A DNA stretch of 64,000 nt, from contig QZKE01000065.1 in assembly GCA_003598015.1 (NCBI GenBank), positions 8,280 through 72,279 on the forward strand. Reading direction: 5' to 3'. Positions 6,185-62,572 of the stretch are shown here, piece by piece (the stretch's first letter is position 1; each line of letters opens with the position of its first letter). Made by a program: the position numbers and the translations under genes. This DNA comes from Actinomycetota bacterium. GTDB taxonomy: Bacteria; Actinomycetota; Geothermincolia; Geothermincolales; RBG-13-55-18. The notes under the pieces are model-generated. The model had not been told where the DNA came from, searched no databases, and worked only from the letters and a program-made list of their open reading frames with translations.

Positions 6185-8854
6185 ATGGCGATGATGAGGA
6201 GAATAGGCGTTTCCCTGCGCAGTGAGGGAGGTTTCTCCCTGGCCGAGGTGTTGATGGCGGGCCTTATCATGGCGCTGGCCATTCTCCCCATGGTGGGGAT
6301 GTTCGACGGCGCTTTCCTGGCATCGCAGGCCGCTGCCGACATCAATACATCCGCGGAGTGCCTGCAGCTGTACACGGAGAAGATAAGGAACATACCTTTC
6401 TACATGGAACATAGCGAGAGCGACCTCGGCATTCCCCTGGACGTGGACGACTTCTACTGGGGCAGCCGCAGCCCCGTCTACACCAATACCTGGACGACGG
6501 CCCCGGAGGTCGTAGTCAAAAACTACGACGTAGAGCCCTACCCGGATATGAGGGTGACCGTGAAGATGTCCTACATCGATGACGAGGTGATGAACGGCGT
6601 AACCCTGGAGCAGGCCGCCAACGCCACCGTCCTCGCCAGCGACTGGCAACCCACGACCCTGTACGGATACGACCGCCCGCAGAACGCCACCGGCAAGACC
6701 CTCACCCTGATTCTCTACGAGGTCAAGGCGACCGCGCGGAGCGGCCGTTCCTACACCAATGCGGAGCTCTACGCCAATCCCACCGACGCGGTGGCGAACG
6801 TATATATCGACCGCGTGGTTAACATCGACTCGGACAGCAGCAAGCTGGGTACCCGCTATAACGCCCTCTCGGAATGCGTGAGCGCGCCTCACAACAAGAA
6901 CGACATAACCATACGCGCTTACGGCGAGGGCTTCACGGCGGCTGAAGTGGCTTCGGGCCTGGTCGACGTGAGGCTGGTGCGCGTGGAGGATACCGACGTC
7001 CAGCTGCGAGGCAGCCCGACGCTCACCTTCGGGACGGATGCCACCGGGACATACGTCCAGGGGGAGATCGATCTGGCCGATGATGACGGGGACGAGGAGC
7101 CATGGGCGCCCGATTACCGCATGCCCGGCTACTGGCATGCCTGGCTGGCCGTGGATCACGTCATATCCGTCAGGAACAGCGCTTTCGTGGTGGAGTACCC
7201 GGTTCCGGTCTACCACTCTCCCGGATCTGACTTCGCGGACGGCGACGGGAACAAGTCGGGCCTGGAGAGCAGCACGGACGAGGTGATAACCTTCACCAAC
7301 CTCGACTACGTAATCAATTTCGTCACCGGCGAGCATCCCGCCCCCGGCGTTGGAGCCGTGGTGCAACTCGTGCACACCGTCGAAGATGACGGCGTGCCCA
7401 TCGACAGCATCAACGGTACCAATCTTACCATCGTTCCGTCGGCGGCGGACGGATACCAGACCGGTCTTACCTCGGTATCAGCACGCTTCAATTTCACCGG
7501 GCATATCGGCGGCGATTACTACGTGCGCGTGGTCAATTGCATCGACAGGTCGACACCGGATCCGCAGGTCATGGGAAACACCTATTTCGAGCTGGACGCG
7601 GGGCCGTACTACTACCTGGAGGGACCGCCGGCGGTCGACGAGGTCTATGTCTACGAGGAGACACCGGTGACGCCATCCGTACGTCATTTCGGTTACGACG
7701 ACCGTGAGTACACCTACAACCTCGAGATAAAGGGCTTCAACTTCGACGACGAGATCTCCGTGGACGATATCTGGCTGGGCCTCGGCGGGGACGTCCTGGT
7801 CGAGCCTCCGGTGGGTGACAACGAGGTGCACCCGGTCTCGGTGGACATACTGGACGATCAGACCATCCAGGCCGATTTCGACTTCGTGGACGACGTCGGG
7901 GATACGGAGAGGGGCCTGTACTGGCTGTACGTACGCAACAGCAACGGTTTCGGCAATGTCCTCAACCCCGCTTTCGATATCCGCGAGCCCAGGCCCATCG
8001 TCTACGACTACAGCGTGGACACCTACGGCCTGTGGCAGAACTACTACGGCGTGGAGGTGCAGGTCATAGGGGAGTGCTTCGACGTCGACCCCGTGGCGGG
8101 GGATTACGTGGACGTAATGATCAAGGAGAAGGACGTCCCCGCCAACGACTGGCTGGCCACCGAGGCCATGGCCGCCCCGGTGGCCGCACCCGGAGGCAGG
8201 CTCGTCACCTGCGCCCTGAACCTGGTGGGCTGCGATACCGGAGACTGGGAGCTCTACGTGAAGTCCCAACCGGCCGGGCTCACCGACAGCGGCTATACGG
8301 ACGTTATCAGCGGGATCATCTACACGAGCTATATAAGCGTCGATTACGGGACGCCCATCCTCCTGACCCCGGGAGTGCCCGCCGCGGGCCAGCCCTGGTC
8401 GGTGAGCATCACCAGCCGCTATAAGGACTGCAACGGATCGGGGGAGTGGGGAGAGTGGAGCTCCTGGCAGACGGTGACCGAGGGGAACGGCTCGCGGGCG
8501 TGGGCCTGGGAGAACGACCCCCTGCACGACACCGTCAATTACCGCACGGAGGGCGAGATGTACTTCGCGCAGTTGCGCGGCATGGGCTTCAACAAGGACG
8601 GCACCATTGACGTTGAGTGCATGGGCAAGAACGACCTCCCGCCGCAGTTCCCGCTCTTCCAGCAGACCTGGCAGGACCAGGCGGTACACTGCGACCGCGC
8701 CAGCGCCCAGGTGTGGATAGAGATGGACGATACCCAGAAGAAGAGTTCCGGCCCGGACGAGGGCGGATTTGTCAAGATGCGTATCAGGAACGACGGTACC
8801 GGGATGTGGTCCGACTGGTATATCGACAGGTTCGCCTTCCAGTCCCAGGGATAA
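6185..8854 (+). CDS. Giant modular prepilin-type protein (PilV-like pilin domain plus about 650 aa of Ig/IPT-like modules)
   Basis: Class III signal ...SEGG|FSLAEVLMAGLIMALAILPMV with Glu+5. The C-terminal part has beta-sandwich-like segments (e.g. YNLEIKGFNFDDEISVDDIWLGLGGDV...LYWLYVRNSNGFGNV). RBS GGAGAGGGG lies upstream. Confidence 0.8.
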   Translation: MAMMRRIGVSLRSEGGFSLAEVLMAGLIMALAILPMVGMFDGAFLASQAAADINTSAECLQLYTEKIRNIPFYMEHSESDLGIPLDVDDFYWGSRSPVYTNTWTTAPEVVVKNYDVEPYPDMRVTVKMSYIDDEVMNGVTLEQAANATVLASDWQPTTLYGYDRPQNATGKTLTLILYEVKATARSGRSYTNAELYANPTDAVANVYIDRVVNIDSDSSKLGTRYNALSECVSAPHNKNDITIRAYGEGFTAAEVASGLVDVRLVRVEDTDVQLRGSPTLTFGTDATGTYVQGEIDLADDDGDEEPWAPDYRMPGYWHAWLAVDHVISVRNSAFVVEYPVPVYHSPGSDFADGDGNKSGLESSTDEVITFTNLDYVINFVTGEHPAPGVGAVVQLVHTVEDDGVPIDSINGTNLTIVPSAADGYQTGLTSVSARFNFTGHIGGDYYVRVVNCIDRSTPDPQVMGNTYFELDAGPYYYLEGPPAVDEVYVYEETPVTPSVRHFGYDDREYTYNLEIKGFNFDDEISVDDIWLGLGGDVLVEPPVGDNEVHPVSVDILDDQTIQADFDFVDDVGDTERGLYWLYVRNSNGFGNVLNPAFDIREPRPIVYDYSVDTYGLWQNYYGVEVQVIGECFDVDPVAGDYVDVMIKEKDVPANDWLATEAMAAPVAAPGGRLVTCALNLVGCDTGDWELYVKSQPAGLTDSGYTDVISGIIYTSYISVDYGTPILLTPGVPAAGQPWSVSITSRYKDCNGSGEWGEWSSWQTVTEGNGSRAWAWENDPLHDTVNYRTEGEMYFAQLRGMGFNKDGTIDVECMGKNDLPPQFPLFQQTWQDQAVHCDRASAQVWIEMDDTQKKSSGPDEGGFVKMRIRNDGTGMWSDWYIDRFAFQSQG

Positions 8855-28452: not shown

Positions 28453-28473
28453 GGTTCTTCCACAAGAAGTGTG
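28453..28473 (-). repeat. 21-bp palindromic motif copy (reads CACACTTCTTGTGGAAGAACC towards the corrinoid gene)
   Basis: 18/21 match to CACACTTCTCGGAGAAGAACC. Followed after 8 nt by a perfect TATAAT (28444-28439, minus strand). 47 nt upstream of the ATG at 28406. Confidence 0.6.
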
Positions 28474-28643
28474 AGTAAGTGATGGTGAGATTGACCCGGC
28501 AGCAAACCAGGCTTCTCGCGCAAGAAGAAATGAAATCCACCCCGCCTCAGGGGCGCATGTCCCGGACCCCGGCACCATGAGGCTGCATGCGCGACCGCGA
28601 TGCGGTTGAGGCGGATGAGGTTGCCTCTTTCAGGCCGGGGGGA

Positions 28644-29585: not shown

Positions 29586-29606
29586 GCCTCTTCTCCGAGA
29601 AGCGTG
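29586..29606 (-). repeat. 21-bp palindromic motif copy (reads CACGCTTCTCGGAGAAGAGGC towards the hydrolase gene)
   Basis: 18/21 match to the consensus. TATAAC (29579-29574, minus strand) lies 6 nt downstream. 46 nt upstream of the ATG at 29540. Confidence 0.6.
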
Positions 29607-30010
29607 AGTTGGCTTCGGAGTCTTGGAGGGCCAGGTCTTGCATCCTGAATTCTGGAGAAACGGCCGGCATGGAACGGTCAGATGGCAGAAGTACAGGATT
29701 CAACTTCTGACCCACCCCTATTTGTTCCAGTCTCACCACTCGCATTTCTCGCAATATTCATGCCTTCGCACATGACCATCATACATTCTATATCACGAAG
29801 CCTCGGCCCGGGTATGACGGGGAGCAGTGCGTTGGCGGGAGCAGTAAACGATCGGAGGTGGCTGAAATACTCCCGGGGATGCGCCCGTGTTGGGGCCGGC
29901 AACGTCACGGGAACGTCCGCCCTGCGCGCTCGCTAAGGCGGAGGGGACCAGCAGCACGGGAGGTATAATCAAAACGAGCATAACGCTGAAGCGGCGAGAG
30001 GGCGACTGTA

Positions 30011-33450: not shown

Positions 33451-34971
33451 TCAATTTATGAACTGGGCTTTCAGCTCTTTTTTCAGAATCTTTCCTGTCG
33501 CCGTACGTGGCAGGGCCTCGACGAAAGCGACTTTCTTGGGTATCTTGTACTTGGCAAGCCGGCCCTTACAGAAGTCTATTACCTCCTGCTCGCTTACCTC
33601 GATTCCGGGAGCGGGAACCACGACCGCCAGCCCCACCTCTCCCCATTTTTCGTCCGGGACACCGATCACGCCGGCATCGGCGATCTTTTCGCAGGCCATG
33701 AGCACGTCTTCCACCTCGGCGGGATATACGTTTTCGCCGCCGCTGATGTACATATCCTTACGCCGATCTACAAGATAGAGATATCCTTCGTCGTCGATGT
33801 AACCCATATCGCCCGTATGCAGCCATCCGTCCGTTATGGACTCGGCTGTGGCCTCGGGAAGCTGCCAGTAGTCCCGGATAACGTTGGGACCCTTTACCCA
33901 TACCTCTCCCATCTCGCCCCGGGGCAGGTCGTTCCCTTCCACATCCATTATGCGGATATCGGTATGAAAGACGGGCTTCCCGCATGAGCCCAATTTGCGC
34001 AGGGCATCCTCGGTGCGCAGCGCGGTGATGGCGGTGGCCGTTTCGGTCATGCCGTAGCCCTGGTTAAAAGTGATGCCGTGTTTGAGCCAGGTCTCGATGA
34101 GAGGCCGTGGGCAGGGGGCGCCACCGGCGATGAAGAAGCGCACGCTGGAGTAATCGGTACTGTCGAATTCCGGCACCTGGGTCATGAGCAGAAACATCAC
34201 GGGAATACCGAACATGAAAGTTACCTTCGCTTCCTCGATGATCTTGAGCGACTCCACGGGGTTGAAAAAGCGCTGGATCACAACGCGAGCGCCCACATAT
34301 AGAGCGGGAAAAGCGGAAACGGCAAGGCCGCCTATATGAAAGAGCGGGGCACTGGCGATACTGGCGTCAGAGGAATCGAAAGCGTACATGTTTATGGAGT
34401 TGATGGCGTTCCACTGCGTGTTACCGTGGAGTATGGCCGCCCCTTTCGGTTTGCCGGTGGTGCCGGAGGTATACATAATGAACTGGACGTCGTCGAGGGT
34501 GACCTCCGCATCGGGTACCGGTTCCTCCTCCGATCGCCCGGCCACCCACTGCTCATACAGAGGATCGGAAGAATCGCCTCCTTCGAGCTCGCGGATATAC
34601 TGACGCATGGAGGGGATTTTCCCCCTGAGGGCTTCGGCGGTCTCGGCGAACTCAGGCGAGTAGATGAGCCCGATGGGGCTGGAATCGTTGAGGATATACT
34701 CCAGCTCCGGCGGCGCCAAGCGGAAATTGAGGGGAACCATTATCCCGCCGAGTTTACTCATGGCCAGGAGCACCTCCAGGAAGACATTGGTGTTGGCGAG
34801 AAGCGCCGCGAAGCGCGTTCCCTTTCTCACCCCCAACTCCTGCAGGGCATGGGCGAGGCGGTTTATCCTGGTGTTGAACTCCCCTTTGCTCAGCGAGAGG
34901 TCCCCATATTCTATATAGGGTTCGTCGGGATAGCGCGCCGCCCAGCGTGCGGGCCATTCACCTACGTTCAT
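33451..34971 (-). CDS. AMP-dependent acyl-CoA synthetase/ligase
   Basis: AMP-binding motif YTSGTTGKPKGA, plus GYGMTE, TGDMGYIDDEGYLYLVDRRKD and LPRTATGKILK. ATG 34971 is preceded by AAAGGAGG at 7 nt; the track start 35013 is less likely. Confidence 0.92.
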   Translation of the reverse strand: MNVGEWPARWAARYPDEPYIEYGDLSLSKGEFNTRINRLAHALQELGVRKGTRFAALLANTNVFLEVLLAMSKLGGIMVPLNFRLAPPELEYILNDSSPIGLIYSPEFAETAEALRGKIPSMRQYIRELEGGDSSDPLYEQWVAGRSEEEPVPDAEVTLDDVQFIMYTSGTTGKPKGAAILHGNTQWNAINSINMYAFDSSDASIASAPLFHIGGLAVSAFPALYVGARVVIQRFFNPVESLKIIEEAKVTFMFGIPVMFLLMTQVPEFDSTDYSSVRFFIAGGAPCPRPLIETWLKHGITFNQGYGMTETATAITALRTEDALRKLGSCGKPVFHTDIRIMDVEGNDLPRGEMGEVWVKGPNVIRDYWQLPEATAESITDGWLHTGDMGYIDDEGYLYLVDRRKDMYISGGENVYPAEVEDVLMACEKIADAGVIGVPDEKWGEVGLAVVVPAPGIEVSEQEVIDFCKGRLAKYKIPKKVAFVEALPRTATGKILKKELKAQFIN

Positions 34972-35118
34972 GATCGTACCTCCTTTGTGATTCGTCTGAC
35001 CGCCCGGCATCATGCAGGAAAGCTCTCTCCGGGCGGTCCGGACCGACGTTCACTGTTTCCTCGCAGCATCCCCTCCTCGAGTGAGAAACCCGACCCCAAC
35101 TCCACCATATTATCCACC

Positions 35119-35139
35119 CACACTTCTCGGAGAAGAACC
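35119..35139 (+). repeat. 21-bp palindromic motif copy (consensus CACACTTCTCGGAGAAGAACC)
   Basis: Perfect copy between the ligase start (34971) and the arsC-like stop (35227). Flanked by AT-rich hexamers on both sides (TAATAT on the minus strand at 35112-35107; TATATT on the plus strand at 35143-35148). Confidence 0.6.
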
Positions 35140-35226
35140 AAATATATTATTTACCGCCGGCGTAGAATTGAAACGCCATCCTGCAACTCGTAACTCAACC
35201 CCGAAAGGCGTTGTCTCGGCGGAGGT

Positions 35227-35616
35227 TCAGCCTTCGAGTTCACGCACGAGCTCCGCGACCATGGAGGCAATCCTGTCCCTGGTCTCCCTCATCGTGGCCA
35301 TATCTCGCCGGCCGGGGTCGTCTATGAGCCATTCCTCCAGACGGTCTCTGGCGGGGAAGACACTCTTGACTATGCAGCCGAAAGAGATGATGCGGCGGAA
35401 TCCCTGCAGGCTGGATAGATAGAGCGGCTTCGGGACCGCCAGCGAGATGTCTATCCCCACTTCCGCCATGGCCTCGACGGCGAGAGGATTTACGGCCGCT
35501 GCGGGATGCGTGCCAGCGCTCTCCGCTATCCAGGCGTCCGCCAAGCGGTTGAAGAACGCCTCGGCTATCTGGCTGCGCGCGGCATTCTCGCCACATACGA
35601 AGAGTATCTTATCCAT
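35227..35616 (-). CDS. Low-molecular-weight phosphatase-fold protein, arsenate reductase (ArsC, thioredoxin-coupled type)-like
   Basis: MDKILFVCGENAARSQIAEAFFN (CX5R P-loop)...ESAGTHP...NPLAVEAMAEVGIDIS...ISFGC. The track TTG start at 35625 is less likely than ATG 35616. Confidence 0.8.
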   Translation of the reverse strand: MDKILFVCGENAARSQIAEAFFNRLADAWIAESAGTHPAAAVNPLAVEAMAEVGIDISLAVPKPLYLSSLQGFRRIISFGCIVKSVFPARDRLEEWLIDDPGRRDMATMRETRDRIASMVAELVRELEG

Positions 35617-35637
35617 GCGCCCCAAGCCTTTGCGTTA

Positions 35638-35658
35638 GGTTCTTCTCCGAGAAGTGTG
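35638..35658 (-). repeat. 21-bp motif copy = left TIR of the MITE-like element (faces the arsC-like gene)
   Basis: Reverse complement is CACACTTCTCGGAGAAGAACC (21/21). 22 nt upstream of ATG 35616. Confidence 0.6.
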
Positions 35659-35850
35659 GGTAGAGACTAGTGAGCAACATCGTCAGGCATAGGGGTCGGC
35701 CCTGGACTTATGCCTGACCCATATGTCCAGCATATATGAATGGGGATTTGAGTGGCGCCACACTTCTTTCCTCCTGCTCCTCCTGGCTGTTTCAGGCATA
35801 AGTCCAGGGCCGACCCCTATGCCTGACGCCCACACTCCTCGGAGAAGAAC
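35638..35850. mobile_element. MITE-like non-autonomous element (213 bp) with 22-bp TIRs and a 9-bp flanking direct repeat
   Basis: Left end GGTTCTTCTCCGAGAAGTGTGGG and right end CCCACACTCCTCGGAGAAGAAC match at 21/22 as inverted repeats. Perfect 36-37-nt subterminal inverted repeats lie at 35682-35718 and 35792-35827. TTTGCGTTA is present at 35629-35637 and again at 35851-35859. Confidence 0.6.
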
Positions 35851-35851
35851 T
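35831..35851 (+). repeat. 21-bp motif copy = right TIR of the MITE-like element (faces the His-rich gene)
   Basis: CACACTCCTCGGAGAAGAACT (19/21). 54 nt upstream of ATG 35905. Confidence 0.6.
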
Positions 35852-35904
35852 TTGCGTTATCGCCACGACTACCTGGGTTCAAGGCAATATTATATACTCA
35901 TCTC

Positions 35905-36243
35905 ATGAGTTATCATGAAGACAGATCGCCCTTGCTGCTGAAGGTGGCCTTGCGCCAGGCCCTACGGCGCATGCAGGGCGAGGCCGATGCTTTTTCGCAG
36001 TATGAAGCCCTGGCCGGCAACCTGGGCTGGGAGGAAGTCGCAGATGCGGCGGCCGCCACGAGGAAAGCCCTGGCGGATGCGGTCGAGGGGGTGGCCGATG
36101 CCATCGAGGCGACCGTCAAGATCCAGGCCGCCGCCACCCACGAGCACCCTGAAGGGCACGAGCACCCTGAAGGGCACGAGCACGAGCACGGCCATGCTCA
36201 CAGCCATCCCCACGCACATCCCCACGACCACGAACATACCTAA
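35905..36243 (+). CDS. Histidine-rich hypothetical protein (putative metal-binding)
   Basis: 112 aa, alpha-helical N-part and the C-terminus THEHPEGHEHPEGHEHEHGHAHSHPHAHPHDHEHT. TATACT at 35893-35898 lies 6 nt before the ATG, suggesting a leaderless mRNA. Confidence 0.65.
   Translation: MSYHEDRSPLLLKVALRQALRRMQGEADAFSQYEALAGNLGWEEVADAAAATRKALADAVEGVADAIEATVKIQAAATHEHPEGHEHPEGHEHEHGHAHSHPHAHPHDHEHT
36139..36186 (+). repeat. 18-bp in-frame tandem repeat (CACGAGCACCCTGAAGGG x2 plus partial copies)
   Basis: Identical copies at 36139-36156 and 36157-36174 encode HEHPEG HEHPEG. Degenerate CACGAGCAC units follow. Confidence 0.85.
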
Positions 36244-36320
36244 GGGCAGCGAGAGAAGAATTCTGGTGCAGGCCGGAACGCCGTTAGCGACAAGGGCAGT
36301 CGAAAAGGCGCATTGACCGG

Positions 36321-37085
36321 TTATGTAAACTTCTGCATGAGGTCGCCGAAGGGTAGATGGTAGTTGATGAAGGTGGGGATGGGATAACGGATGCCGCGTG
36401 CGCTCGTAGCCTCCAGCCCCTCCATTATCCTCTCCGCCCATGCCGCCGGGAAAGCGAAGATGAGCTCGTCATCATGGGTGGTAGCGAATACGCGATCCCC
36501 GTTCCCGGGCAGAGCGACCCTGGGGGTCGCACTTGCGAAGGTGCGCACAACCCCCTCGTTGCATGAACCGGCTATGCCGCCGAAATCGGCGGGCACCCTC
36601 TCGCCCGTCCAGCGGGAAGTGGCGTGCACCAGGCGCATGATCTGTGCAGGATTGCCATAGACCAGCACCAGGTGAGGCTCCACGCGCGTACGTGCAAGCG
36701 GCGACATGACGAGCTTTGGGTATGTATCGGCTTCCAGCATGGCCATACCCTGGACCCTCTTAGCGGCGGCGTCATCGTCCCTGGCGTAGTTCATGGTGAG
36801 CAGGAAAGCGGCCATGAAAGATGGACCGGTGGTCGTATCCCAGCCAAGCGCGGCATTGGCCAGGGGGCAGCTAGACTCCTCGAGTTCGAAGAGCATGGTC
36901 AGGCCCCTCTCCCTGGTGAGCGTAAGCCCCTGGCAGAGGGCGATACTGCAGCCCGTCTCCTCGCTGGGCCGGCGCGCGCGCTCCGGCGGTTCTTCTCCGC
37001 GCTGCAGGAAGCGGATGGCGACCGGGAACGTCGCCGGCCTGATGAAATCCTCGAGCCTGATCCCCAATTCCCTCCATTCCTCCAT
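36321..37085 (-). CDS. DUF169 family protein
   Basis: MEEWRELGIRLEDFIRPATFPVAIRFL...CSIALCQG...SSCPLANAALGW...GNPAQIMRLVHA...GSCNEGV matches my recollection of the DUF169 (COG2043) layout. ATG 37085 follows an AAGGAGG RBS; the track start 37148 is rejected. Confidence 0.65.
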   Translation of the reverse strand: MEEWRELGIRLEDFIRPATFPVAIRFLQRGEEPPERARRPSEETGCSIALCQGLTLTRERGLTMLFELEESSCPLANAALGWDTTTGPSFMAAFLLTMNYARDDDAAAKRVQGMAMLEADTYPKLVMSPLARTRVEPHLVLVYGNPAQIMRLVHATSRWTGERVPADFGGIAGSCNEGVVRTFASATPRVALPGNGDRVFATTHDDELIFAFPAAWAERIMEGLEATSARGIRYPIPTFINYHLPFGDLMQKFT

Positions 37086-39686: not shown

Positions 39687-39707
39687 GCTTCTTCCCCGAG
39701 AAGTGTA
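39687..39707 (-). repeat. 21-bp palindromic motif copy (reads TACACTTCTCGGGGAAGAAGC towards the DUF2207 gene)
   Basis: 18/21 match. AT-rich GATGATATC follows on the minus strand (39683-39675). 44-92 nt upstream of the candidate starts. Confidence 0.55.
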
Positions 39708-40031
39708 GGGGCAACCTGCACGATCGCTCAAGGAGGGTTTGCACGGCATGGTAGCCCGCCCATAGCCGCAGATCGAGCGACAGAGGATGGAAAAGACGGA
39801 GAACGCTTCGCTTTTGCGCTTCCGCGCACATTCCAGAGCACCTCGGCGAAGTGGTAGAATCCCTATAAGCAACCTTGTATTAGTGTTGGCTTCAATGTTG
39901 AAAAGCTGGAGAGATGCGATGGTTGTGGAAGAAATGGCCTTGCTGCTCTATGTAGCCTGCACCTCCGTTGATACGGGCTTCTCCAGCCAGCCGAAGAAGC
40001 CATCCCTGAGCGCGAATCATAAGGAGTCAAG

Positions 40032-62380: not shown

Positions 62381-62551
62381 ATCCGTCTCGAGTCCCCCTT
62401 GTCATCAGAAACGTTATTCAACGCCACATCCATTTAATCCTGCGTTCATTCATATTACCACCGTGCAGTGACGTGAGAGGTGGCGTGAAAGGCCGCCCCA
62501 TGGGCGGTTCAAGCTCGGGCTTGACTTTTACCGTTCCCATCATTATTCACG

Positions 62552-62572
62552 CACACTTCTCGCATGAGAACC
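62552..62572 (+). repeat. 21-bp palindromic motif copy (CACACTTCTCGCATGAGAACC) upstream of the activase gene
   Basis: 18/21 match. TAGAAT at 62575-62580. 60 nt upstream of ATG 62632. Also sits just downstream of a TTGACT-17-TATTCA pair (62521-62549). Confidence 0.55.

Follow-up and report, generated by a model that had tools for sequence, protein, structure and literature searches.

A probable chimera of a REPIN-like doublet and an ISL3-derived MITE between divergent arsC-like and His-rich genes of an uncultured actinobacterium

The stretch of DNA analysed here (the window, 64,000 nucleotides, C6:8280-72279) belongs to a metagenome-assembled genome (MAG) of an uncultured member of the Actinomycetota (G000; 3.79 Mb, 61% G+C, 104 contigs, 89.5% complete); other G-numbers designate relatives, and C-numbers the contigs of whichever genome is named, G000 by default. 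In it, a 213-bp element lies between two divergent genes, one for an arsC-like protein and the other for a His-rich protein (Table 1). The element is bounded by terminal inverted repeats (T) at 35639-35660 and 35829-35850, complementary at 21 of 22 positions, and encloses two inner arms (R, the unit here called REP-1, REP standing for repetitive extragenic palindromic) of 37 nt each (35681-35717 and 35792-35828), which are mutually 100% complementary and each of which forms a hairpin of its own (10-bp stem, GTCAGGCATA...TATGCCTGAC). Its left side carries 20-21 additional nt (35661-35680/81), and the direct repeat CTTTGCGTTA, 10 nt long with the final C of the right repeat included, flanks it at 35628-35637 and 35850-35859. 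Hereafter, > and < denote the orientation of T and R.

These features are hardly the product of base composition, the terminal 22-mer having four matches in the window at ≤3 mismatches versus none in 100 dinucleotide-preserving shuffles, and the inner 37-mer two matches versus none in such shuffles. Only short open reading frames of 50-61 aa overlap the element, and an Rfam scan of 34900-36400 returned no family matches. An initial annotation, made from the letters alone, had described motif-bearing terminal inverted repeats identical at 21 of 22 positions, two perfect reverse-complementary segments of 36-37 nt that each form a hairpin, and an extra 20 nt in the left arm; all of this is borne out, with both inner arms measuring 37 nt. 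It had also placed the insertion 22 nt from the arsC-like ATG and noted the lack of a transposase in the window: 21 nt were measured from that codon to the left end of the element, and profile searches of the whole genome for ISL3 and Y1_Tnp returned nothing on contig C6.

The terminal repeat (GTTCTTCTCCGAGAAGTGTGGG) has 175 copies in the genome at ≤4 mismatches, of which 82 are solo, while others form 21 short T>T< elements (64-173 bp), 11 complete T>R>R<T< elements (170-225 bp) and about 14 one-sided T/R combinations. Paired copies point inward in 33 out of 33 cases, the T<T> arrangement was never seen, and a BLAST comparison of the element region with its own genome gives dozens of matches; hence the sequence is not single-copy genome-wide, as it would have to be for the initial annotation to abandon its transposon reading. 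When the ends of the elements were defined genome-wide as G+GTTC...GAAC+C/T and the duplication was scored on the 8 nt outside both ends, 12 of the 33 pairs showed a perfect 8-bp duplication and 26 matched at ≥6/8 positions, versus 1.1% reaching ≥6/8 and none reaching 8 among 1056 control pairs of non-partner flanks. A and T make up 67% of the duplicated sites, the genome being 61% G+C. At the window copy, a right terminal base T instead of C and agreeing neighbour bases make the 8-bp duplication look 9-10 nt long. The direct repeat proposed initially is thus real, its length of 9 bp being corrected to 8 bp by the family and the 9-mer lying inside a stretch of 10 nt extended by chance; neither does it belong to a longer local duplication, as had been envisaged, since the 8-bp duplication is shared family-wide. 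Inward terminal inverted repeats, a duplication of fixed length and a small (64-225 bp), non-coding, multi-copy body support the 213-bp element being a genuine miniature inverted-repeat transposable element (MITE).

The T copies are abundant in G007 and G009, and none were found in G005, of the same genus. In G007 most perfect copies stand ~30-50 nt from contig ends (for example on C2, C4, C16, C21, C47, C62 and C63), and the MITE family is a main cause of the fragmentation of that assembly into 440 contigs. A third repeat family of ~60-70 nt, GTAATGGGRAATGGGGTCAGG(T/G)CTTG.CA.CTCTCGCCTGCGGCTCGAGACGCAA.ACCTGACCC, was also observed in G000 (C19:32612-32830, C4:74-220 and C20:40394-40580); it is frequent at contig ends (C1:35, C42:25, C62:53, C78:52, C86:53 and C96:43) and sometimes tandem, with periods of 82-128 nt. 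Another MITE or insertion sequence (IS) end, or a REP relative, are the candidates for its nature.

Empty orthologous sites, whose search in relatives had been recommended at the outset, were indeed seen. The divergent arsC-like/His-rich pair is adjacent in the same-genus G007 and G009 and in G015, of another genus, and alignment shows all three to be without the element. The interval from the arsC-like start codon to the conserved TATATACTC...ATG of the His-rich gene measures 50 nt in G007 and 52 nt in the window after removal of the element and of one duplication copy, a single ...CTGTTATCC... standing in G007 where the window reads TTTGCGTTA-element-TTTGCGTTATCGCC. The relatives thus do not share the arrangement of the window, which would have counted against a transposon, and the empty sites, together with the multi-copy family and its 8-bp duplications, support the MITE reading. 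They also indicate that the insertion post-dates the split from the sequenced congeners, finer dating not being possible. Exact-protein look-ups of both neighbour genes returned only the source contig (JGI 3300038436, Ga0394679_033329) with the same 288-nt gap, and no alternative same-species allele.

The origin of the outer repeats is indicated by genes elsewhere. A Pfam search of G000 detected an ISL3 transposase on C50, frameshifted and missing its N-terminus, and a second ISL3 remnant, a 44-residue fragment, on C24. The T variant GGTTCATCTCCCAGAAGTGTGGG overlaps the final codons of the C50 pseudogene, and likewise the C-termini of ISL3 transposases in G002 and G011 (95-100% identical), mostly at contig ends, as expected for a collapsed multi-copy IS, and in G030 (73% identical); in G026, a one-base variant of T lies ~50 nt from the end of a stop-interrupted ISL3 match (54% identical). 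An intact ISL3 copy is present in a 1768-bp contig (NZ_JBMFOX010000113.1), its transposase being 85% identical to the actinobacterial pseudogene. Related repeats are found at both ends of this copy, GGTTCTTCTCCATAAAGTATGGG on one side and GGCTCTTCTGCATGAATTGTGGG, as its reverse complement, 1334 bp away on the other. Subterminally it has GGGTGAA... on its left and GGGTAGCTA... on its right, the same sequences as in the two arms of the short MITEs. The ends of the ISL3 element read GGTTCTTCTCC and GGCTCTTCTGC, and its open reading frame matches PF01610 and NF033550. The contig is filed under a Ca. Hadarchaeum sp. MAG, of archaeal assignment, which reflects either mis-binning or a cross-domain IS transfer.

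As is known from ISfinder, members of the ISL3 family habitually produce 8-bp duplications at AT-rich targets, and their terminal repeats begin GG(C/T)TCTT. The MITE agrees with them in its 8-bp duplication and in its 67% A+T targets, and the ISL3 element with the ends given above in the start of its terminal repeats; through the ISL3 copies above, the ends of the MITE match those of a transposase-encoding IS. The proposal that the element is non-autonomous is supported, and its terminal repeat also adjoins the pseudogene of an ISL3 transposase elsewhere in the genome. The suggestion to look for a transposase bounded by the same repeats was answered in part: T ends the C50 pseudogene and the ISL3 genes of relatives, and among T>...T< pairs 250-6000 bp apart in G000, possibly enclosing a transposase, no bona fide IS was found.

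The inner repeat has its own history. At ≤8 mismatches, R (37 nt) has 152 copies in G000; its core (≤3 mismatches) has 142 copies in G000, 5 in G007 and 1 in G008, while the remaining 38 of 40 relatives have none. The copies form 48 inverted R>R< doublets with spacers of 69-77 nt, many of them without a nearby T, and individual doublets show compensatory differences between both arms. A profile search revealed three IS200-like Y1_Tnp genes in G000, which are diverged paralogues. That at C29:19549-20529, an open frame of 327 aa with the HUH motif NHYHL (PF01797, E = 3e-10), has R>R> at 70-140 nt on its upstream side and R<R< at ~160-250 nt on its downstream side; its product has a long C-terminal extension, and Pfam recognises Y1_Tnp only. 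The R hairpins are thus a second repeat family tied to a Y1 transposase, and not part of the MITE proper. A CRISPR-like interpretation of the R arrays was considered and rejected, since the orientation of the units changes from one to the next and homologous spacers separate them.

Orthologues of the C29 protein, 56-68% identical, occur in G004, G005, G006, G008 and G017, and those of G005, G006 and G017 are each flanked by their own inverted variant, with AGGC..GGGGTC(A/G)(A/G)GCC...GCCT in common. G000 contains neither the G005 variant, counted 106 times in G005, nor the G006 variant, of which G004, G006 and G008 have 16-31 copies. The motif GGGG[AT][CG]A[CG] is found as GGGGTCAG in REP-2 (a further repeat of G000, see below), as it is in the variants of G006 and G007. 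Its counterpart is GGGGTCAA in those of G005 and G017, and in REP-1 it is GGGGTCGG, which deviates by one base. High-copy palindromic doublets, a Y1 gene flanked by them, and lineage-specific variants co-inherited with the gene are all characters of REPINs (REP doublets forming hairpins) and their RAYTs (REP-associated tyrosine transposases). The cargo is called here only REPIN-like, and the protein is filed as of TIRYT type, because the GTAG tag is missing and the NCBIfam cut-off for the RAYT model is not reached; by this analysis, the C29 protein would be of the TIRYT or TnpA_REP subclass 2.1 type.

Further repeats of this kind were observed. Outside the window, a second Y1_Tnp gene (C10:37245-38435, 284 aa) is flanked by inverted REP-2 (TAGGGGTCAGGTCTTTCATTTTGCATAC), whose core GGGGTCAGGTCTT has 104 exact copies in G000, mostly as tight palindromes or as doublets ~110 nt apart; REP-2 and the C10 gene are a second TIRYT-type repeat system of this genome. 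The 106 copies of the G005 variant stand mostly as direct tandem pairs 32 nt apart, unlike the inverted doublets of G000 with their ~73-nt spacer.

The outer and inner repeats are strongly associated, 62 of the 152 R copies (41%) and 35 of the 81 R clusters lying ≤110 nt from T, with 3.6 clusters expected by chance; when only distinct junction types (≥5) are taken as independent events, the linkage is not significant (P = 0.07). Elements of the window subfamily share the junctions T + TAGAGTATAGTGAGnAACATC, doublet, G + T<, and copies on C6, C35, C11, C2 and C13 have identical junctions and different duplications. The doublet of the window is 99% identical to that of the C35 copy, and the whole element 96% identical. 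In a tree of the 48 doublets, those linked to T cluster together, with 8 label changes versus a shuffled mean of 16.3 and none of 500 shuffles as low. The window copy falls in a clade of 11 (95% SH-aLRT, the Shimodaira-Hasegawa-like approximate likelihood ratio test), nine of them T-linked and two with a truncated or degenerate T, whose terminal branches measure 0.006-0.07 versus 0.06-0.34 for free doublets. Taken together, identical junctions, different duplications and a young clade indicate that the chimera was propagated as a single unit. About half of the subfamily (C4:23778, C80:1711, C88:4606, C7:57467 and C87:9853) has the spacer running the opposite way with respect to the MITE arms, which are asymmetric; inversion between the two perfect inverted arms of 37 nt is the simplest explanation. 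REP variants and spacers of their own distinguish subfamilies B and C, REP-2-like doublets are found in T>T< elements of 157-173 bp, and the G007 MITEs carry a different GGGGTCAG doublet and an 8-bp duplication, CAAAACTT.

Considering all this, the element is very probably a REPIN-like doublet nested in an ISL3-derived MITE, a chimera that was amplified as a unit and landed ~21 nt upstream of the arsC-like ATG. Its outer shell would be a MITE formed from both ISL3 ends, with 23-nt terminal repeats and ~8-21 nt of subterminal IS sequence, whose terminal repeats would be recognised in trans by an ISL3 transposase of the DDE type; insertion into AT-rich DNA with an 8-bp staggered cut would leave the TTGCGTTA duplication. 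The cargo would be a 146-bp REPIN-like doublet, made of two inverted 37-nt REP-1 hairpins around a spacer of ~73 nt. One doublet from the older, free population would have ended up in the middle of a MITE, whereupon the chimera would have burst as one unit via the faster ISL3/DDE machinery, and one of its copies would have inserted by the arsC-like gene after the species split from its sequenced congeners. We infer both the transposase that moved the element and the order of these events.

Several observations weigh against this interpretation. The empty sites come from other species, with ~72-77% nucleotide identity in genes, and not from the same population; exact searches of metagenome contigs for the reconstructed empty site and for the occupied left junction gave no matches, the locus not being represented there. 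No intact ISL3 transposase was found in the 89.5%-complete genome beyond the C50 and C24 remnants, although this degree of completeness makes an unassembled intact copy possible, and current mobility is unproven because the C50 copy is frameshifted and N-terminally truncated. Regarding the cargo, the C29 protein scores 46.6 bits on the NCBIfam model NF047646 for REP-associated tyrosine transposases, below its cut-off of 80, and has no sequence match in the PDB at E ≤ 0.01, while the R units lack a conserved GTAG tag and start with (G/A/C)TCAGGCATAGGGG. Finally, chimeras with other REP variants and junctions also occur, in subfamilies B and C as well as in the G007 type, so that one old capture followed by divergence and repeated captures are inseparable.

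Of the other explanations, an origin in two steps at this very locus, with a short REPIN-free MITE inserting first and a free REP-1 doublet later integrating into its central hairpin, would account for doublets being found inside at least four MITE subfamilies at a REP-end-like centre (GTCAGGCC...GGCCTGAC), which may attract them, as well as for the excess of R clusters linked to T. It is nonetheless unlikely, because the window copy has exact junctions in common with several copies that bear different duplications, its doublet being nearly identical to the C35 one, and because independent integrations of the older, diverged free doublets would not be expected to yield a young, short-branched T-linked clade. 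That the whole 213 bp, T included, is instead a mosaic of the BIME (bacterial interspersed mosaic element) or REP type moved by the Y1 transposase, with ISL3 uninvolved, would fit the strong association of T with R and the description of TIRYT genes with long terminal inverted repeats and with repeat families arranged in dimers and clusters (PMC3733652). However, T flanks none of the three Y1 genes, ends ISL3 elements, and abounds in G007 and G009, both without a C29 orthologue and with at most five R copies. Moreover, Y1 HUH transposases of the IS200/IS605 type are not known to make target-site duplications, and the presence of these runs against such established behaviour, leaving the mosaic a barely plausible option.

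A different view would dispense with transposition, T being a transcription-factor operator or promoter element and the whole a palindromic regulatory region of the divergent pair. T does contain an internal palindrome, TTCTC-N-GAGAA, and its outer ends face 109 gene starts versus 45 gene ends, clustering 40-63 nt upstream of start codons (by rough gene calls); such ends in the window are those at 28454, 29587, 35117, 35639 and 39688. Yet the family-wide 8-bp duplications, the strictly inward pairs, the empty sites of relatives, the identity of T with ISL3 element ends and the traces of inward partners or IS-type subterminal sequence beside solo copies (see below) are those of a transposon. 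In addition, the upstream bias is explained by the target and by depletion between convergent genes: by the same calls, T clusters are enriched between divergent genes and number 6 between convergent ones versus ~19 expected by length, and we infer that an AT-rich 8-bp target, promoters being AT-rich islands in a genome of 61% G+C, acts together with selection against insertion elsewhere. No convincing hexamer was found when the terminal repeat was inspected by eye for an outward-facing -35 box. A regulatory region of this kind is therefore very improbable, a secondary regulatory use of some T copies being possible. An assembly artefact, that is, a repeat-induced chimeric join in a metagenome contig, might be suspected in a MAG, all the more since in G007 these repeats break the assembly and many T lie ~30 nt from contig ends; the element stands, on the contrary, inside an 85-kb contig between syntenic genes, with a clean local duplication and flanks that align to the empty site of relatives, and the chance of such a join appears close to negligible.

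Accepting the nested chimera as the best account, its occurrence in more than one form suggests a further, tentative idea that we regard as rather doubtful: the centres of ISL3-MITEs in this genus might repeatedly acquire the current REP doublet of the resident TIRYT-type Y1 transposase, the DDE-driven MITE being a faster vehicle than the Y1 system. The cases that would illustrate such recurrent coupling are the REP-1 and REP-2-like doublets in G000 and the different GGGGTCAG doublet in G007; if true, it would be a route of REPIN dissemination not described before. A triple nest was also observed at C47:7856-8230, where a T-MITE with a REP-1 doublet (7877-8100, duplication TGTTTTTT) lies inside a REP-2b T-run; the REP-2b unit hit by the chimera is GGGGTCAGGTCTTGTTTTTTGCATACC, with its partner at 8202.

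The solo copies of T, which the initial annotation took for either repeat remnants or a disseminated regulatory site, retain traces of their origin. A degenerate partner repeat lies ≤260 nt inward of 31 of the 82, versus 11 in the outward control, and 31 of the 82 keep subterminal sequence of the IS-end type, versus 1 in the control. Many of them, at least half of the copies tested, are thus demonstrably decayed or truncated MITEs, and not a separately disseminated regulatory site, so that the first option holds for those copies and the second does not. The solo and degenerate copies of the window are listed in Table 1.

Regarding the neighbouring genes, the only sigma-70-like match reading towards the arsC-like gene lies to the right of the element, in a region that directly adjoins that gene in the element-free relatives, and only a plausible ribosome-binding stretch (AAAGG...GGGG) is present between the element and the arsC-like ATG. 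If the predicted promoter is used, the 5' untranslated region (UTR) of the arsC-like gene has likely grown from ~42 nt to ~263 nt. According to RNA folding, the corresponding 279 nt would form a near-perfect hairpin (-153.8 kcal/mol, z = -12), the predicted single-stranded DNA fold reaching -74.8 kcal/mol (z = -12.7); hence, the window copy probably adds a very stable hairpin to this 5' UTR. Intrinsic termination is not predicted, since no U-tract follows the hairpin, and processing of the long RNA duplex would be possible. On the other side, the insertion has not disturbed the conserved core of the His-rich gene promoter, which is situated to its right. A palindrome, ACTCAT-N3-ATGAGT, was moreover observed over the start codon of the His-rich gene (35890-35925), conserved across the genus in the alignment of G007, G009 and G015, and the start of this gene directly follows the conserved TATATACTC box. 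By its appearance, the His-rich gene is leaderless and has a site resembling an operator, which a metal-responsive regulator might recognise.

Table 1. Coordinates of the element, of other terminal-repeat copies and of neighbouring features in the window.
Feature	Position	Strand	Basis or remark
Left target-site duplication, 8 bp, TTGCGTTA	35630-35637	.	family-wide duplication statistics
Left terminal inverted repeat T>, GGTTCTTCTCCGAGAAGTGTGGG, ISL3-type end	35638-35660	+	same repeat adjoins ISL3 transposase genes
MITE subterminal segment, TAGAGACTAGTGAGCAACATC	35661-35681	+	homologous to left arm of short REPIN-free MITEs of the same subfamily, e.g. C61:12321
REP-1 unit R>, GTCAGGCATAGGGGTCGGCCCTGGACTTATGCCTGAC, left doublet arm	35682-35718	+	unit also flanks the Y1 transposase gene on C29
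Doublet spacer, ~73 nt	35719-35790	+	homologous to spacers of free doublets
REP-1 unit R<, right doublet arm	35791-35827	-	complementarity to left arm
Right terminal inverted repeat T<, one internal mismatch, terminal base T not C	35829-35851	-	complementarity to left end
Right target-site duplication, 8 bp, TTGCGTTA	35852-35859	.	match to left copy
Element-free junction as it would read at the window locus	...GCCTTTGCGTTA joined directly to TCGCCACG...		
Perfect solo T, then inward left-arm-type TGGATAATATGGTGGAG...; half-MITE	35117-35138	-	subterminal match
Degenerate T (4 mismatches), decayed partner ~50 nt inward; decayed short MITE	28454-28475 (C6:36733)	+	
Degenerate T (4 mismatches), then REP-2-like inverted doublet; ~170-bp MITE class	29587-29608 (C6:37866)	+	
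Degenerate T (3 mismatches), interior unrecognisable	39688-39709	+	
Degenerate T (4 mismatches), left-arm-type subterminal sequence; half-MITE	62550-62571 (C6:70829)	-	
arsC-like / low-molecular-weight phosphatase gene, 129 aa, PF01451	35227-35616	-	ATG 21 nt from left end of element
His-rich protein gene, divergent neighbour	35905-36243	+	conserved TATATACTC...ATG right of insertion, intact
Promoter-like site ATGATA-16-TATAAT, reading through element towards arsC-like gene	35889-35916	-	consensus match only

In part, the element is ordinary, being a new MITE family of a known kind in an uncultured lineage. Bacterial MITEs derived from DDE insertion sequences, such as RUP, NEMIS/Correia and Nezha (as listed in PMC3733652), are likewise non-coding and of similar size (64-225 bp here), with ends of 22-23 nt identical to those of the parent IS, an 8-bp AT-rich duplication, and dozens to hundreds of intergenic copies that are often near gene starts and form strong hairpins. 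They differ in that the interior is here a complete doublet of a Y1/HUH-linked repeat family and not mere leftover IS sequence, as well as in the host, an uncultured member of the Actinomycetota. Such repeats have practical consequences, as they fragment related MAG assemblies and mimic regulatory motifs upstream of genes.

The cargo resembles REPINs and RAYTs (Bertels and Rainey, PMC3116915; bioRxiv 10.1101/2021.07.10.451892) in its two inverted palindromic units of ~37 nt around a ~70-nt spacer, in its more than 100 copies with compensatory arm changes, in the low-copy IS200-like Y1 gene (one of three paralogues) flanked by inverted units, and in the species-specific units of sister species. 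On the contrary, GTAG is absent, the 327-aa protein has a long C-terminal extension and stays below the NCBIfam cut-off, the host is actinobacterial and not proteobacterial, and 41% of the R units lie inside or next to a DDE-type MITE. The capture-then-burst pattern, in which T-linked R copies are much younger than free ones, agrees with the contrast between MITE and REPIN rates drawn by Bertels and Rainey (bioRxiv 10.1101/2021.07.10.451892).

A closer match for the protein is offered by the TIRYTs and TIRtrons (Di Nocera et al. 2013, PMC3733652), Y1 genes flanked by GGGGWSAS inverted repeats whose families form dimers and clusters, and by the equivalent TnpA_REP subclass 2.1 (Quentin et al. 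2018, PMC6006769), with its long helix-turn-helix-like C-terminal tail. Shared characters are a Y1 HUH protein longer than classical RAYTs, flanking repeats of the GGGG[AT][CG]A[CG] type, and dimers or clusters. Nevertheless, the described TIR families are only "moderately abundant" (PMC3733652), and no REP-like sequences were reported beside subclass 2.1 genes (PMC6006769), whereas here 100-150 copies per genome form REPIN-like doublets that co-vary with orthologous genes across the genus. Species-specific families of this size beside TIRYT-type genes, in a genus of Actinomycetota, extend REPIN-RAYT-like systems beyond Proteobacteria.

In a search of the literature, neither an ISL3-derived MITE of this type nor a REPIN nested in a MITE was found, and the chimera of a Y1-linked REPIN-like doublet in a DDE-type MITE, both multiplied together, is apparently undescribed. 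The movement of REPINs is not known to have been observed in experiments so far; with its DDE vehicle, a natural chimera could make a tractable system for assays, in which both modes can be compared in rate within one genome. A known association of DDE elements with REP is that of IS1397, ISKpn1 and similar elements, which target REP sequences, so that an IS comes to lie inside a REP. The present case is similar in that a DDE element is physically associated with REP, locally as in the C47 nest, but the nesting is reversed, the REP doublet being inside the terminal repeats and travelling with them.

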